Program-made: the position numbers and the translations under genes
The notes under the pieces: generated by a model
What the model saw: only the letters and a program-made list of their open reading frames with translations
Databases searched by the model: none
What the model was told of the DNA's origin: nothing
From: Cyanobacteria bacterium auto_48_18
GTDB lineage: Bacteria > Cyanobacteriota > Vampirovibrionia > Obscuribacterales > Obscuribacteraceae
Direction: 5' to 3'
Assembly: GCA_036170915.1 (NCBI GenBank)
Contig: JAVHQC010000036.1
Location: 32,001-96,000, forward strand
DNA length: 64,000 nt
Shown here: positions 54,438 to 63,645 of the stretch, one piece after another
Layout: each line of letters opens with the position of its first letter
Position numbering within the stretch: the stretch's first letter is position 1

Positions 54438-55406
54438 TTGAACTCAAATGTAGACCTCATTGCTAAAGAACTGCTGGCCGGTAACAGGCGGGCTCTCGGT
54501 CGCGCTATTTCGCTGGTTGAAAACGGTGGAGCCGATGCCACCAGTCTGGTGCACGAACTTTACCAACATACGGGCAAGGCTCATATCATTGGCGTCACGG
54601 GCTCACCAGGAGTGGGCAAGTCGACTTTAGTAGATGCACTGATAACAGAATGCCGTAAAGAAGATTTGAAAGTGGCTGTGCTGGCTGTAGATCCTTCAAG
54701 CCCATTTACCGGGGGAGCCATTCTTGGTGACCGCATACGCATGCAAGGACACACTTTAGATCGTAATGTATTCATTCGCTCTATGGCTAATCGCGGCCAC
54801 CAGGGCGGAGTTTCACTGGCAACTTATGATGCCATTCGCATGCTCGAAGCTTCCGGCTATCAAGTCATAATTATTGAAACCGTTGGTGTAGGCCAATCTG
54901 AGCTGGCCATTGCTCAGCATGCCGACACCACTATTTTGGTTTTGATGCCAGGATCAGGTGATGATATTCAAGCAATCAAATCTGGCATCATGGAGATCGG
55001 CGATATTTTTGTGGTCAATAAAGGCGACCTGCCTGGCGCCAATAAATCGGCCAGCGAGATTACAGCTTCTTTAGAGCTAAATCATTTTCAAACTTCGTGG
55101 CGTCCACCCGTGGTGCTGGCTATTGCTGAAACTGGTCAGGGTGTTGACCAATTGTGGCAGGCAGCCAAAGATCACAAAAAATTTCTCACAGATGAAAATC
55201 TACTCGACTCAAGACGCAGTTTGCGCATTCGTGCTGAACTTTCAGAAATAGTGGCCGATATTGCTCGGCGCAACTTGCAAGGCTCTATGGATAGTGACAG
55301 CGTGCGTCAAATTTTGAGCCAGATCGTCAACCGCGAAGTTGATCCGCACACTGCCGCAATGAATTTATTGCCTGGCTTATTTAACGGCGTCACTTGCCGC
55401 TCTTAG
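54438..55406 (+). CDS. meaB: MeaB/ArgK (MMAA) GTPase metallochaperone
   Basis: GSPGVGKST, AVDPSSP.TGGAILGDRIRM, ETVGVGQSE, NKGD. Confidence 0.95.
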   Translation: MNSNVDLIAKELLAGNRRALGRAISLVENGGADATSLVHELYQHTGKAHIIGVTGSPGVGKSTLVDALITECRKEDLKVAVLAVDPSSPFTGGAILGDRIRMQGHTLDRNVFIRSMANRGHQGGVSLATYDAIRMLEASGYQVIIIETVGVGQSELAIAQHADTTILVLMPGSGDDIQAIKSGIMEIGDIFVVNKGDLPGANKSASEITASLELNHFQTSWRPPVVLAIAETGQGVDQLWQAAKDHKKFLTDENLLDSRRSLRIRAELSEIVADIARRNLQGSMDSDSVRQILSQIVNREVDPHTAAMNLLPGLFNGVTCRS

Positions 55407-55717: not shown

Positions 55718-56575
55718 GTGTCTAAAATTGCCATAATCAGTCAACCAGATCAGGGCGTCTTAATTGATGTCGGCGGTTGTTCATCACTTAAAGAAGCACT
55801 GGAACATTTAAGTTCGACTCTGCAATCTTCCAATCAATTTTGGAAAGGTCACAAGGTCATTCTTGGCCTGGGTGGCATTGAGCTCACCGTGGCACAGGCA
55901 GCGCAAGTTTTAGCGCTCGCTAAAGGCGTTGGTGTATTCCCTGAAGAAGTTTATTCCAAGAACGAAAAAACCAGAGCCGCCTTTTTAGAAAACAGCGTCA
56001 AGGTGACTAACAGCTTGCCCATGTCGCTACCCAAGATCAATGTTGATATTCCGCTTGGTGGCATACCATTTGCTACTGCTGATGCAGACAGTGACTCAGA
56101 ATCGCAAAATAAAAATGTGGTGCTCGATGTCACCATGATTGAAATGGAACATGACACCGTTGAAGATACGCCGCTGCCTGCCGCCAAAGTTGAAGTAGAC
56201 AAAGATGGCGCTGTAGTGACTACAGTTTTGCCACAAGTGCTTTATATCAAGCAAACCTTGCGCTCGGGCCAGGTAGTCAGCCATAAAGGCGATCTGGTAA
56301 TTGTGGGTGACGTTAATCCGGGGGCTGAAATTTTAGCCGAAGGTGACATTACAGTTTGGGGAAGTTTGCGTGGTATCGCTCACGCTGGTATCGGCGGTAA
56401 TACCGAAGCCGAAATCAGAGCGCTTAACTTGCAGCCGATTCAAATTCGAATTGCCCACGCGATTGCCCGCGCTCCCGACCGCCCGCGCATCACTTATGCG
56501 AACGGCACGGGCCCTGAAATTGCCCGCATAGTCGAAGGCAAGATTCGCATTCAAAAAAACAAGATTGAAAACTAG
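55718..56575 (+). CDS. minC: Septum site-determining protein MinC
   Basis: TLRSGQ...GD.VIVGDVNPGAEI.A.G.I.VWG.LRG.AHAG. Confidence 0.95.
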   Translation: MSKIAIISQPDQGVLIDVGGCSSLKEALEHLSSTLQSSNQFWKGHKVILGLGGIELTVAQAAQVLALAKGVGVFPEEVYSKNEKTRAAFLENSVKVTNSLPMSLPKINVDIPLGGIPFATADADSDSESQNKNVVLDVTMIEMEHDTVEDTPLPAAKVEVDKDGAVVTTVLPQVLYIKQTLRSGQVVSHKGDLVIVGDVNPGAEILAEGDITVWGSLRGIAHAGIGGNTEAEIRALNLQPIQIRIAHAIARAPDRPRITYANGTGPEIARIVEGKIRIQKNKIEN

Positions 56576-56639
56576 AAATCTAATTCTAGTTCCCAAAGTT
56601 TCTTACAGTCATTATTACAAAGCCATACGAGGATACTAA

Positions 56640-57455
56640 ATGAGCGGACGAGTAATCGTAATCACCTCCGGCAAGGGTGGTGTTGGCAAGACAACAGCTT
56701 CTGCCAATATCGGCGTGGCTCTTGCCTCCACAGGGGTGAGCGTTGCCCTGGTGGATATGGATATAGGACTGCGCAATCTCGACATCTTGATGGGTCTCGA
56801 AAACCGCGTGGTCTACAACCTGGTTGATGTGGTGGAAGAGCGTTGCAAACTGCGCCAAGCTCTGGTCAAAGACAAAAAGTTGCCAAACTTGAGTCTATTG
56901 CCCGCAGCTCAAACCAGAGACAAATCAGCAGTCAATGCTGAGCAAATGAAAGCTCTCTGCGGCGAACTGAAAAGCATGTACGATTTTGTGCTCGTTGACA
57001 GCCCGGCTGGTATTGAGCAAGGTTTCCAGAATGCTGTGGCTGGTGCTGACGAAGCTATTGTCATCACCACCCCTGAAATGTCTGCCGTGCGTGACGCTGA
57101 CCGCATTATCGGTTTGCTTGAAGCTCGTAAAGACGAAATTAAAGAATATCGCCTGGTGCTCAATCGTTATAGACCAACAATGGTGGCCAATAACGACATG
57201 ATGAGCGTTGACGATGTGCTCGAAATTCTTTCTGTAAAACTGCTTGGTGTAGTGCCTGAAGATGAAGACATCATCATCTCCACTAACAAAGGCGAGCCCA
57301 TTTCCGGCACCGACAACATCAGAGCTGGCCTCGCATATCGCAATATCGCTCGTCGCATTCGCGGTGAAGATGTAGCGATAATGGATCTTGAATCTAAGAA
57401 TTCCACCTGGATCAACAAGATCGTCAGCTTCTTTAATCCCACAGTTAGAGTTTAA
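56640..57455 (+). CDS. minD: Septum site-determining ATPase MinD
   Basis: SGKGGVGKTT, DIGLRNLD..MGLENR, DSPAGIE, C-terminal amphipathic helix. Confidence 0.97.
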   Translation: MSGRVIVITSGKGGVGKTTASANIGVALASTGVSVALVDMDIGLRNLDILMGLENRVVYNLVDVVEERCKLRQALVKDKKLPNLSLLPAAQTRDKSAVNAEQMKALCGELKSMYDFVLVDSPAGIEQGFQNAVAGADEAIVITTPEMSAVRDADRIIGLLEARKDEIKEYRLVLNRYRPTMVANNDMMSVDDVLEILSVKLLGVVPEDEDIIISTNKGEPISGTDNIRAGLAYRNIARRIRGEDVAIMDLESKNSTWINKIVSFFNPTVRV

Positions 57456-57469
57456 GGGAGGAGGTAACA

Positions 57470-57733
57470 GTGCAAATGCAAATATTCAACTGGCTCTTCC
57501 CCGCAAAAGGCGACGACGTTCGTTCTACAGCCAAAGACAGAATGCGCAGCATGCTGACTCATGACCGTTTAGAGCTGCCCGCCGGCCGTCTGGAAACCCT
57601 GGAAGAAGAGCTTATGGCAGTGGTCGGCCGCTACTTTGAGCTTGATAAAGACACAACTCACTTCGATCTGCAACAATATGAGCGTCGGGCCAGCTTAATC
57701 GCTAATTTCCGATTGCTTCGCTCCAAGTGCTAA
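57470..57733 (+). CDS. minE: Cell division topological specificity factor MinE
   Basis: AKDRM..ML.HDR; position after minD. Confidence 0.9.
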   Translation: MQMQIFNWLFPAKGDDVRSTAKDRMRSMLTHDRLELPAGRLETLEEELMAVVGRYFELDKDTTHFDLQQYERRASLIANFRLLRSKC

Positions 57734-57761
57734 TTCTGATTAAGAGCATAATGCAGATTTC

Positions 57762-59063
57762 GTGACTTCTCGAGTCGCTCCATCATCACTAATCCCGTCC
57801 GCTGTGCGGAGCCTGTTCAATGTCGTCAACGGCATCGACTTTTGGCTTCTCGGAGCGACGGGATTTTTGATTGCGGTGGGTTTGAACGTGCTGCATTTTT
57901 CGCAGCATACTCAAGGCTATTTTGATAAACAGTTGAGCTACATGTACGCCGGTCTGGCCCTGATGGTGATCGTCAGCCGTATTCCCCATAAATTATGGAC
58001 GAATAAGTGGATGGTCAGTTTGATGTACTTAGTCAATCTTGGACTGCTTGTAGCCGTTATGCTCAAAGGTCACGCCGCCCAGGGGGCGCAGAGATGGCTG
58101 GCGCTGGGACCGATCACACTACAGCCTTCCGAGCTGGCCAAACTAGTGGTAATTTTTTCACTGGCCGCCTGGTTGAGAAATCATCGCATCAATTCGTTTT
58201 TTGATATTTTCAAAATACTGGGCATCATGCTTGTGCCGGCAGTGCTGGTATTCAAGCAGCCAGACTTAGGCACGTCTCTGACTTTTGGTGCCGTCTTCCT
58301 TGGCCTTTCCTACTGGTCGGGTGCCACGGTGATGGACATTCTGGTGCTGATTAGCCCTTTGCTTTCGCTCATTCTCAACGCGCTTAATCTGGAGTGGTGG
58401 CACATGTTTTTAGGAGCCCTGGCTGTGGTGCTCTTAATTTTCTGGCGCACATTTGATTGGAAGATTTGGATTCGGCTGGCCATGATTGTTGTGGTGATGG
58501 CGGCAAATTATGGCTGCGGCGAGGCCCGGCCACATCTCTGGGGTTTACTGAAAGAGTATCAGCAGAAGCGGCTCACCAGTTTCGTAAATCCATATGACGA
58601 CCCCAGGGGCTCTGGTTATCATATTTTGCAAAGTTTAATCGCCATTGGCTCTGGTGGCATCAGTGGTGCTGGTCTAGGACACGGCAATCAGGCCCAGGGC
58701 GCATTTATCCCTGAACGACACACCGACTTTATTTTTGCTGTGATCGGCGAAGAGTTAGGGTTTCGCATCTGTCTACTTATTGTCATCGCCTACGGAATAA
58801 TTTGTCTGCGAGCTCTGTTTATTGCCCATCAATCCAGGGGTGACCCCGCCGGGGCGGCTATGGCTATTGGTCTTATGTGCATGTTTCTCTTTCACGCTTT
58901 CATCAATATTGGCATGACCATCGGCTGTATGCCGGTGGCCGGTGTGCCGCTGCCATTTCTCAGTTATGGCGGCACGGCTTTGATTGTCGATCTCGTTGCC
59001 ATCGGCCTGTTGCAGTCAATTTATTATCACAACCCTAAAGAAGTGAAAGACGACTGGGGTTAG
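57762..59063 (+). CDS. rodA: Rod shape-determining protein RodA (SEDS family)
   Basis: GAQRW, QPSELAK, QPDLGT, HTDFIF..IGEE.G, LPFLSYGG. Confidence 0.93.
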   Translation: MTSRVAPSSLIPSAVRSLFNVVNGIDFWLLGATGFLIAVGLNVLHFSQHTQGYFDKQLSYMYAGLALMVIVSRIPHKLWTNKWMVSLMYLVNLGLLVAVMLKGHAAQGAQRWLALGPITLQPSELAKLVVIFSLAAWLRNHRINSFFDIFKILGIMLVPAVLVFKQPDLGTSLTFGAVFLGLSYWSGATVMDILVLISPLLSLILNALNLEWWHMFLGALAVVLLIFWRTFDWKIWIRLAMIVVVMAANYGCGEARPHLWGLLKEYQQKRLTSFVNPYDDPRGSGYHILQSLIAIGSGGISGAGLGHGNQAQGAFIPERHTDFIFAVIGEELGFRICLLIVIAYGIICLRALFIAHQSRGDPAGAAMAIGLMCMFLFHAFINIGMTIGCMPVAGVPLPFLSYGGTALIVDLVAIGLLQSIYYHNPKEVKDDWG

Positions 59064-60801: not shown

Positions 60802-61365
60802 TTATTCAGGCATTAACACTGTATCAATTACGTGGATTACTCCATTTGAGCATTTGATATCAGTAGCAGTAACCGTAGCATTTCCTACCATCACTTTACC
60901 GTCTGCTTGCTTAATAGCAACACTTGAACCTTCAAGAGTCTTAGCCGACTTCATTTTTACTACTTTACTAGCCAATACTTGACCATTGACAACGTGGTAG
61001 GTGAGCACTTTGGTGAGCTTGGCCTTATCGGCGAGCAAACCGTTGAGAGCGTCAGCAGGCACCTTGGCAAAGGCGGCATCATCTGGCGCAAAAACTGTGA
61101 AAGGGCCTTTACCCTTGAGAGTCTCGACCAAGCCGGCTGCACCCAAAGCTTTGGCCAATGTACCAAACTTGCCTGCGGCAACAGCAGTATCGACGATGTC
61201 ACTGGTGGCTGCATCCGAGGCTTTTTTTGTTTCGCTGCTCGCTACTTTAGTAGAGCAAGAGGATCCAGCAAGGGCAGCAGTGAACGGGGCCACGGCGCAG
61301 ACGCAGGCTAACGCAAATACTGCGCCTGAAGTCATGTAGGTGCGTTTCGATTTAGTTGACAACAT
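60802..61365 (-). CDS. Fasciclin (FAS1) domain exported protein
   Basis: [40 protein letters not shown]. Confidence 0.95.
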
Positions 61366-61422
61366 AATTTCCTCCCGCTGCCACTAGTAGGCAGCAATAT
61401 TTAACTGGTGACTGAAAGAATT

Positions 61423-61448
61423 TTGACTCAAAATACATTTATAGTCAA
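61423..61448. promoter_or_regulatory. Candidate TetR operator in divergent promoter region
   Basis: TTGACT-N14-AGTCAA inverted repeat. Confidence 0.45.
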
Positions 61449-61488
61449 TCCTCTAGTCGTTAATTGTAAAATGTGTCAGGAGAGAAGA

Positions 61489-62109
61489 ATGAATCAAACG
61501 CGACGCGGGAAAATTTTAGAGTCGGCAACCTGGCTATTTGGTTACTATGGCTTTGAAAAGACCACTGTTGACGATATAGCTGACCGAGCGTCAGTCAGCA
61601 AGGGTTCTGTTTATCTAGAATTTCAGAACAAAGAAGCGATTTTGGTCGCAGTTGTTCAGCAATTTACAAGCCGCGAACTTGAGCGCATCAATCGACTTTT
61701 GAAAGAAGCAAAGGCGCCCTACCTTGAGGTTTTACGCGAGCTTCTATACGGTCATGTTATGTCGTACTGGTCAATCGCCAGCGGCCAGTTACATAGCCCC
61801 GAAGTTATTGCTTCGGCAAACCCTTCGATCATGGCTGAAATTATCAACTTTCAGAGTGCAATATTTTTACAGATTGCATTTTTACTTGAGAAAGCCGCAA
61901 CTAACAAAGAAATTGCGCCGGCAAAAGCGGCTGACGAATATTTCTTTCAGGCCGAACTTGTCTGCTATCTTTTGGCCGCCTTATTCCCGCCTTACGACAG
62001 ACTCAAAGCACGAGACCCCGCGGCGTTTACTGAAGCAACTTTGCGCAAATACGCAGAGAGCATGATCACCATGACCTTGAATGGTGTTCGCTCGAGCGGT
62101 GTATTGTAG
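61489..62109 (+). CDS. TetR/AcrR family transcriptional regulator
   Basis: ILESA..LF...GFEKTTVDDIA..A.VSKGSVY..F.NKE; ATG 61489 after AGGAG. Confidence 0.93.
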   Translation: MNQTRRGKILESATWLFGYYGFEKTTVDDIADRASVSKGSVYLEFQNKEAILVAVVQQFTSRELERINRLLKEAKAPYLEVLRELLYGHVMSYWSIASGQLHSPEVIASANPSIMAEIINFQSAIFLQIAFLLEKAATNKEIAPAKAADEYFFQAELVCYLLAALFPPYDRLKARDPAAFTEATLRKYAESMITMTLNGVRSSGVL

Positions 62110-62150
62110 AAGAATCAAGAATCTTGGTTCAGTTTCAGGAGAATTTTTCT

Positions 62151-62963
62151 ATGAGAACGATCAAGGCGTGTGGCTGTGGGTTCATCGCCTTGGTCGCTTG
62201 TTTTATTCTTTGTGCGCAGGCTTTTGGGCGTCAAAGCTGGAATCAAGAAGAAGCTGTTAGGCGCGTGCAATCGGTGATCACCCAAGAAGAGGCCAACGAT
62301 TTCCGCTGGGACAAAATTGACTGGCTGGTGGACGCAAAATTAGCTGCCAGTAGATCGCAAGCTGAACACAAGCCAATTTTGCTTTACTTTTTCCTCAAAG
62401 GCGATATTGGTCCGAAGGCGGCGCCTTGCTGACCAGGCGGACGCTTGATGAGGACGGTCTGTCTCTCTAATGAAATCGTGCAAGAGAAAGTAAACGCTTC
62501 GTTCATTCCACTGAAGGTTCAAATCGATCGCGGCACTGCAAAATTTCCCCTGGATTGGCCGGCTCTAAAAAATTGGAAAACTACTTACGCCCTGATGGGT
62601 GGCAGTAAAGCTACGGGCATCACTGCCTGTGTAGTGGTAAGTCCAGATCTGAAATTGCAGTTGGGCAGCACTGGCTCTGCGTTCGTTTGGGAACTGTTTG
62701 ATTCAATTGCTTATGATCCTGTGAAGTTCGCTGCCATGCTTGATGCTTCCTTAGCGAGATCTTCTCAATACGAAAAGATCCTTTCAACCGGTGCTACAAA
62801 CGCAAAAGAACTTCATCGCTTTCGCCATGAGCTTAGTCAGGCATTACAAAAGGAAGGCAGATTTCATTTGCCTCCTCGCGGATTTACCATTGAAGGGGCT
62901 AAAGAACTTTTCCGTCAGACTGGCGACTTAAAAGACGACATGGGTAAACGCCGTTCCAAATAA
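62151..62963 (+). CDS. Exported thioredoxin-fold selenoprotein (C-U motif, selenoprotein N-like), 270 aa; joins the two track ORFs 62124-62432 and 62445-62963
   Basis: Both ORFs are in the same frame and separated only by TGA 62430-62432: ...AEHKPILLYFFLKGDIGPKAAPC-U-PGGRLMRTVCLSNEIVQEKVNASFIP; SECIS-like hairpin follows. Confidence 0.85.
62447..62467 (+). promoter_or_regulatory. Putative bacterial SECIS element
   Basis: GAUGAGGAC-GGUCU-GUCUCUC bulged stem; G-initiated loop begins 23 nt after UGA. Confidence 0.65.
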
Positions 62964-62982: not shown

Positions 62983-63645
62983 CTAGACCGGCACAGCCGC
63001 TGGATTAAAGACTATTTCGGCATCAAAGGCGCCAGCCGGCTGATCATGCAATTGCAAAAAGCTTTCAGCAATCACTGCAGGGTCGAACGCGGTACCAGGC
63101 GCCACGATACCACATATGGTGACAGTGGCTACATGTATTCCTGATGAACTTAACTCTTGATGCAGGCACTGATTTAATGCTCTAAGAGCCGCCTTACCCA
63201 CAGACAGCGCTGTCACTTGAGCTGCCGGTTGCAATGCGTAGCCTCCACCAGTGAAAAGAATAGTGCCTTTACCGAGGTTTTTCATCCCTGGAATTACTGC
63301 TTGCGACGCGGCCAGTGCGGGCGTGACATTGACACCTAATGATTGGCTGAATTTCTCAGCGTCAACACGAGAACCTCTGCCTGGCGTCAAACTAAAAGCA
63401 TTAAAATGAAGTACTTCTATTTCTCCATGTTTTTCTGCAATTTCTGCTAGACAGGTTTTTAACTCTTCTAAGTTAGAGACGTCGAGCTGCCAGGCCGAAG
63501 CATTCTCACCTAATTCGGCACAAAGACCATCAAGCTTTTCACGATTTCGCGCGCACAAGGCGACGTGATAACCGCGGCCTAAAAACGCTTTGGCCACCGC
63601 CTGACCTACACCTGCTCCTGCTCCAAGCACTACGCATGTTGCCAC
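62983..63645 (-). CDS. Short-chain dehydrogenase/reductase (atypical, no catalytic Tyr)
   Basis: VVLGAGAGVG, FNA, GTILFTG, L.VGKAALR. Confidence 0.88.
   Translation of the reverse strand: MATCVVLGAGAGVGQAVAKAFLGRGYHVALCARNREKLDGLCAELGENASAWQLDVSNLEELKTCLAEIAEKHGEIEVLHFNAFSLTPGRGSRVDAEKFSQSLGVNVTPALAASQAVIPGMKNLGKGTILFTGGGYALQPAAQVTALSVGKAALRALNQCLHQELSSSGIHVATVTICGIVAPGTAFDPAVIAESFLQLHDQPAGAFDAEIVFNPAAVPV

Follow-up and report, generated by a model that had tools for sequence, protein, structure and literature searches.

A Selenoprotein Gene Missed by Annotation in the Cyanobacterial Phylum and Its Apparently Uncatalogued Superfamily of Thioredoxin Fold

Introduction

Does a TGA codon that separates two short open reading frames end one protein, or does it encode selenocysteine (Sec, U) in the middle of a longer one? 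The question is raised by positions 62151-62963 of the window, the 64,000-nucleotide stretch of DNA analyzed here. An earlier note on this DNA, made from the sequence alone, had read the two frames as one gene for a hidden, secreted selenoprotein with a motif resembling that of selenoprotein N (SELENON), a human muscle-disease protein.

Reading Frame and TGA Codon

The gene is located on the plus strand at 62151-62963, from an ATG at 62151 to a TAA at 62961-62963, and encodes 270 amino acids with Sec at position 94. The 270-codon frame contains one TGA only, codon 94 (62430-62432). This codon directly follows a cysteine codon, forming the Cys93-Sec94 pair (TGC TGA, 62427-62432, +). The sequence also has a ribosome-binding site, AGGAG, at 62137-62141 (+), 9 nt ahead of the ATG. 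Translation with table 11 yields two ORFs of 102 and 172 amino acids, and the 3' part is entered in databases as a ~168-residue protein. The single frame split after a Cys, the AGGAG site, and the division of the gene by standard annotation had all been claimed in the earlier note and are found as described.

Two comparisons argue that the TGA did not arise by misassembly: a 2.3-kb stretch is identical (0 differences) in a public contig, possibly from the same source sample, and the ortholog in the related genome G006, 91% identical, carries the identical TGA. Kept in relatives and in the public contig, it is not the isolated nonsense mutation or sequencing error that would have spoken against a selenoprotein. 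A crude pN/pS against the G006 ortholog is 0.12 on the 5' side of the TGA and 0.19 on the 3' side. Purifying selection acts on both halves of the frame.

Conservation of the TGA in Homologs

Homologs were found in 8 of 61 genomes by protein search, and all ten matches (10/10) have one TGA, in the same column by translation. Eight metagenome loci were fetched. Seven span the site, two of them sharing one gene, and 7/7 read C-U-P-G-G-R; the eighth begins 3' of the site. A database search blind to fragments shorter than 148 amino acids returned 69 matches, with 63 starting at M100 and two at residue 99, just past the TGA, and three of full length. Of 15 stop-free homologs that span the site, 11 possess Cys where the others have U. 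The other four, with D, G, G, or no Cys, are of the non-Cys kind that the earlier note had counted against its reading; the homologs otherwise show the TGA or Cys that it expected at position 94.

The Cys at U-1 is not universal; some Sec forms carry T or G there. Arg98 (U+4) and Arg101 (U+7), encoded at 62442-62453 (+), are invariant in 12/12 close members, at the offsets of R466 and R469 in SELENON. Cys160 (62628-62630, +) is also invariant in 12/12 and is present in at least 90% of 66. It lies two residues past the cis-Pro position (Thr158) and is a candidate resolving or structural cysteine.

Close homologs in databases are named from Verrucomicrobiota, and atlas clusters are mostly from Verrucomicrobiota and Planctomycetota. 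Single-Cys homologs are present elsewhere in the cyanobacterial phylum. The three loci read (L047, L048, L052) are longer, with open frames of 430-535 codons and the sequence S-C-A-N-S-R-F-F-R. One copy in the close subfamily (L037/L121, G102:C18) is disrupted near its active site by frame shifts and stop codons. A phylum-wide profile search matched 136 of 401 genomes, a number not counted as the range of the family; most of these matches are weak, partial, and in long stop-free frames, and they are probably ordinary DsbH/Trx7 proteins.

SECIS-Like Hairpin

A bSECIS-like hairpin, GAGGAC-GGUCU-GUC(U)CUC, is located at 62450-62467 (+), with its loop at 62456-62460. The earlier note had placed a stem-loop with a GGUCU loop 23 nt past the UGA, and it is the loop that starts after a 23-nt spacer. 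With 5 nt in the loop and 6 bp in the stem, the geometry fits the published bSECIS model (3-9 nt loop, G in the first two places, 16-37 nt spacer; PMC13188914), whose energy limit is -7.5 kcal/mol. The 26-nt hairpin alone folds at -5.6 kcal/mol, weaker than the model's -7.5, which is reached by 6/10 close-subfamily loci. Shuffled sequences fold as well as the 61-nt region does (z -0.44), and the hairpin is not the MFE structure of the longer region.

Hairpins in matching register, at about +18 to +35, are observed in all four subfamilies. Codons V+25 and L+31 are identical in 10/10 close loci. Mean codon identity among these ten loci is 0.73 in the hairpin (4 codons) versus 0.41 outside it (17 codons), and in the 28 loci of a second subfamily it is 0.83 (7 codons) versus 0.44 (18 codons). 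Such values point to synonymous constraint on the hairpin.

A hairpin test, with thresholds chosen after the hairpins were known and applied to related sites, is passed by 21/23 sites and by 13/616 true TGA stops. Synonymous recodings (500) pass at 2.4% for the TGA site at 62430 and at 1.6-25% for the others. A formal covariation count on 9 sequences is not significant (141/500 shuffles), since loops of 4 nt and of 5 nt are aligned together in it. Rfam gives no match at gathering score, and promoter and terminator scans are at or near chance.

Selenocysteine Machinery of the Host

The host genome encodes selB and selD, both exceeding their cut-offs, and a tRNA-SeC with anticodon tca detected by ARAGORN. 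Neither selA nor SepSecS as its substitute was found in the 86%-complete assembly, so the selABCD set looked for since the earlier note is recovered for selB, selC, and selD and not for selA. The selA gene is present in 5/5 relatives that have the selenoprotein gene and in 13/14 other genomes of the genus. In G006, selA adjoins a gene that we take to be rlmB-like. Host contig C27 begins within the Gly-rich 5' part of this same gene, and the other G006 neighbor of selA has no ortholog in the host assembly; the absence of selA is therefore likely an assembly gap.

In the host SelD, the UxxK position is occupied by Cys. Directly behind selD, at C6:162726-163361 (-) of the host genome (G000), is a gene for what is presumably a TusA/YedF-type selenium-metabolism-like protein. 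The 86%-complete genome yielded no gene for a photosynthetic reaction centre, and we infer that the host belongs to the cyanobacterial phylum but does not photosynthesize.

The TGA is kept across homologs, Cys takes its place in most stop-free homologs, and selB, selC, and selD are present. The hidden selenoprotein proposed earlier is upheld on these grounds: codon 94 is almost certainly decoded as Sec, and the gene is a real, unannotated selenoprotein gene.

Probable Export Signal, Fold, and Active Site

Residues 8-22 are the most hydrophobic stretch of the protein and are followed by A-Q-A. Hydropathy suggests a probable cleaved signal peptide of residues 1-24 (62151-62222, +), with the putative cut placed after A-Q-A. 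An L-V-A-C lipobox-like word at residues 14-17 offers an alternative reading of the N-terminus. All read-through members examined (19/19) have a hydrophobic N-terminus and no later transmembrane-like segment. The protein is predicted to be exported, as the earlier note had supposed.

The thioredoxin-fold domain is composed of residues ~49-208 (62295-62774, +) and belongs to the DsbH/Trx7/AGR/UAS subtype. Two AF2 runs concur, with pLDDT of 85.6 and 85.5. The closest structures are 3f9u (Z 11.5, rmsd 3.2, 126 aligned), 3ph9 (10.2), 2lst (10.0), 3ira (9.8), and 2ec4 (9.6). These top matches are all DsbD-gamma/DsbH/AGR/UAS thioredoxin domains, and Foldseek concurs, in agreement with the fold first proposed. 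PDB sequence searches returned designed helical repeats and weak Trx-fold matches. Viral folds gave no match at E<=0.001, and plasmids gave no match.

In the AF2 model, the redox residue sits at the head of the helix that follows strand 1, which places the protein in the thioredoxin fold. U94 immediately precedes helix 95-105, in the register of the first, attacking Cys of CxxC proteins. The classical CxxC motif is absent, and the second Cys position is held by glycine (U94-x-x-G97). The cis-Pro is also absent; a profile alignment puts Thr158 opposite the G-I-P proline of 3fk8.

Neighborhood

The selenoprotein gene is preceded by a TetR-family regulator (61489-62109, +; TetR_N, E 1.3e-14), 41 nt upstream and co-oriented, although this link is not conserved. 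A fasciclin-domain gene, divergent from the TetR gene, also lies upstream, within 60802-62109 of the window. On the other side, a short-chain dehydrogenase gene (62983-63645) converges on the selenoprotein gene. Fifteen loci compared by eye have no shared neighborhood, and their neighbors give no substrate clue. Further upstream in the window are what we take to be an ordinary minC-minD-minE-rodA-like run (55718-59063, +) and, ahead of it, presumably a MeaB/ArgK-like GTPase (54438-55406).

A Superfamily of Sec Proteins in the Order

A scan of the host genome kept 19 of 2125 TGA candidates. Five are thioredoxin-like genes, namely the one described above and four others, and 14 remain candidates. 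Three of the others are paralogs, predicted to be exported, with T-U-S-A-G-N-S-L-R in the same column (L106-L108; C22:441063-442460, -; C22:55243-56436, -; C16:90909-92045, +). Each has a hairpin (-7.8 to -10.7), and none belongs to an NCBIfam family. The fifth candidate selenoprotein, which is less closely related and has the motif V-P-G-T-W-U-P-G-K, is encoded at C5:71207-72241 (+; L109), is also predicted to be exported, and has a hairpin. It has only weak matches, to TsoB, Trx7/PDZ, and VPGUxxT models.

Non-overlapping profiles of the close subfamily and of the other subfamilies match each other over 71 columns (probability 98.2%, E 5e-14). A joint superfamily profile matched 91/107 genomes of the order. 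Among the 150 matches listed out of 273, 145 have one TGA and 5 have none, with the U column verified for the fetched loci. Relatives often carry a subfamily with C-U-T-N-A-R. Its fuller form, G-x-L-D-D/E-x-F-C-U-T-N-A-R-L-A-R (L016, L017, L076-L105), is the best fit to published SELENON residues. Cys-Cys versions of this subfamily occur in selA-positive genomes (L095, L096). L096, the only one folded, has a retained stem and an altered loop, as expected after a recent Sec-to-Cys switch. Trx7-like proteins that combine U-G-G-C (UxxC) with a tail resembling helical repeats are encoded in G255 (L117:519-1178, +) and G134 (L118:572-1516, -) and are probably further selenoproteins.

Genomes of the order contain both selA and the family (80), selA only (6), the family only (11), or neither (10), in a cross-count that takes one unlisted selA-negative genome as G121. 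The family is absent from 6/7 selA-negative genomes that are at least 90% complete, where kin are not independent. Formate-dehydrogenase-like matches are found in 83/107 genomes of the order, none over the cut-off and none with an internal stop, and the host genome has no such match at the thresholds used. The superfamily may thus explain why the order retains selA-D without a Sec formate dehydrogenase. That it is the main Sec user of the order is a lead only, because 14 of the 19 kept TGA candidates in the host are outside the five thioredoxin-like genes.

Members of the superfamily are cut in two by gene callers, and neither the catalogue nor the model libraries consulted contain the superfamily. 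In scans of 5, 11, and 5 proteins, every Pfam and NCBIfam model stays below its cut-off. The nearest NCBIfam model, NF041383, scores 16.7 bits against a cut-off of 275, and no subfamily member scores above 19 bits. The accessible part of a 119-family 2026 catalogue (PMC13188914), compared by names and motifs only, includes no SelN-like family and no fitting motif. Selenoprotein N and thioredoxin are unmentioned in the accessible part of the deep-Sep report (PMC12013277). The literature searched gives no description of the family; subscription papers, theses, and supplements were outside its scope, which may affect novelty. The thioredoxin-fold superfamily is therefore apparently uncatalogued.

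Residues Shared with SELENON

The available portions of the SELENON papers describe a SCUG motif and R466 (PMC12839072), R469 (PMC8639696; PMC3541580), W453 (PMC6438913), and, in isoform 2, Asn449 and the peptide 423-432 (PMC7474598). In SELENON the attack is made from the Sec position, and partners are trapped by a C427S/U428C variant (PMC7474598). Among 30 Sec-form members of the superfamily, C-1 occurs in 27, R+4 in 26, R+7 in 30, N+21 in 18, and D-5 in 13. The sequence matches are suggestive of a SelN-like protein by resemblance, and the protein is not filed as a SELENON member. A SELENON-like layout of the catalytic domain is likewise supported as a resemblance.

Whether the resemblance reflects descent was addressed by targeted searches. 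The resemblance is not shown as homology because these searches returned no SELENON sequence. One domain region, compared with long proteins in a word-limited, weak search, produced 78 candidates, none at E<=10, and an equally word-limited and weak three-fragment profile gave 473 candidates with 10 matches of bacterial type. SELENON was also not found in the atlas, which gave hypothetical and Trx7 clusters only, or in PDB searches. The accessible parts of PMC8584023, PMC10298544, and PMC3473315 contain nothing on bacterial SELENON homologs. Judged from the residue pattern, homology of the domain to the SELENON catalytic domain is somewhat favored.

The leading alternative, with a little less than an even chance, is convergence within the DsbH/Trx7/UAS branch, where a bacterial Sec family would be related to SELENON by fold only. 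It agrees with the unmatched SCUG motif (S-2 in 1/30, G+1 in 0/30, and W-9 in 0/30), with N+21 in 3/6 and R+4 in 1/6 ordinary CxxC controls, and with the absence of SELENON from the matches of word-limited searches. It does not account for C-1 and R+7, which match SELENON and are found in 0/6 controls. One subfamily moreover has D-5 in 13/13, a residue that the start of an Asp-N peptide implies for SELENON in the accessible account.

The chances are even for a broader reading, in which the domain belongs to a large, uncatalogued, exported Sec superfamily with at least four subfamilies and up to 8 copies per genome. This superfamily would be either the prokaryotic origin of the SELENON catalytic domain or its sister group, and it would keep the Sec machinery in the order in place of formate dehydrogenase.

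Proposed Function and Alternatives

The best explanation of the locus, and one we hold to be quite probable, is an exported (periplasmic) thioredoxin-fold selenoenzyme. SelB on the hairpin 18-35 nt past the UGA would bring Sec-tRNA, giving a 270-residue precursor that would be exported and cut near residue 24. U94, at the N-terminus of the active-site helix, would most likely attack an oxidized envelope substrate, e.g., a protein disulfide or a sulfenylated Cys. Either C160 or the vicinal C93 could resolve the mixed Se-S bond, C93 in the way proposed for the CU motifs of thioredoxin reductase and SELENON. The enzyme would then be re-reduced by an electron donor in the membrane, of DsbD/CcdA type. 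Export, the role of U94 as nucleophile, the resolving step, and DsbD/CcdA recycling are drawn from general thioredoxin chemistry and the fold. The job of the protein would be that of an envelope thiol-disulfide reductase, an assignment that is slightly favored.

A different function is unlikely. The selenoprotein could be a peroxide scavenger or a metal/metalloid binder, with CU and C160 binding Hg, Cu, or As. CU motifs are found in the metal-handling selenoproteins SaoL, HgcA, and MbdU in the accessible part of the catalogue (PMC13188914), and both the CxxC and the cis-Pro of ordinary reductases are missing from the protein. The structural matches argue the other way, as all the top ones are DsbD-gamma/DsbH/AGR/UAS thioredoxin domains, and no recognizable metal-resistance neighbors are seen by eye in 15 loci.

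It is very improbable that the TGA is a real stop, whether in a pseudogene, by error, or between two small genes, the second starting from M100 behind an AGGCGG word. Such a stop would suit the missing selA and the ~168-residue database protein, but the TGA occupies one column across homologs of 30-90% identity in four subfamilies. A break would also cut one domain at its active site, and Cys replaces the TGA in intact homologs. The pseudogene and two-gene readings are rejected for these reasons. Genome-wide reading of TGA as Trp or Gly has nothing in its favor and is refuted, because TGA is an ordinary stop in the host (616/2318 frames of at least 300 codons end in it), with Cys in the homologs' column and tRNA-SeC present. 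Decoding as Sec in an exported thioredoxin-fold protein is the reading carried forward here.

Comparison with Known Systems

The DsbH/Trx7 branch of the thioredoxin fold includes Thioredox_DsbH (PF03190), Thioredoxin_7 (PF13899), DsbD-gamma, AGR2/AGR3, and UAS. The 270-residue protein shares their fold subtype, with weak, sub-cut-off Pfam matches. Unlike these proteins, it has C-U-x-x-G for CxxC, Thr at the cis-Pro position, an additional helix inserted at 137-148, and further helices at both termini.

The VPGUxxT selenoproteins (NF041382/NF041383) and Trx7/PDZ proteins (NF041199) are the best NCBIfam matches and are likewise bacterial Sec proteins of the Trx7 branch. The motif differs, and the 270-residue protein has no PDZ domain. 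A bacterial SelN homolog of Candidatus Poribacteria is reportedly described in an unpublished thesis. It is said to be a single long protein close to SELENON, in contrast to the short, multi-copy family described here.

For SELENON itself, the SelN-like claim of the earlier note stands in part. Like SELENON, as described in the available portions of its literature, the protein is predicted to have a thioredoxin domain around Sec on the luminal or exported side (PMC7474598). Cys directly precedes Sec, Arg occurs at U+4 (R466) and U+7 (R469), and Asn occurs at U+21, with Ser at U+23 in the 270-residue protein. Unlike SELENON, the protein has PCUP in place of SCUG, sharing CU but not S-2 or G+1. 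It has no EF-hand match in a Pfam scan and no membrane-anchored N-terminal region, and its SECIS lies within the coding region. If the SELENON link is true, soluble proteins of 25-30 kDa with natural Cys forms would open the SELENON active site to direct tests of its chemistry and structure. They would serve as small models for an active site that is unsolved, PDB searches having given no SELENON entry, and for the disease arginines R466 and R469.
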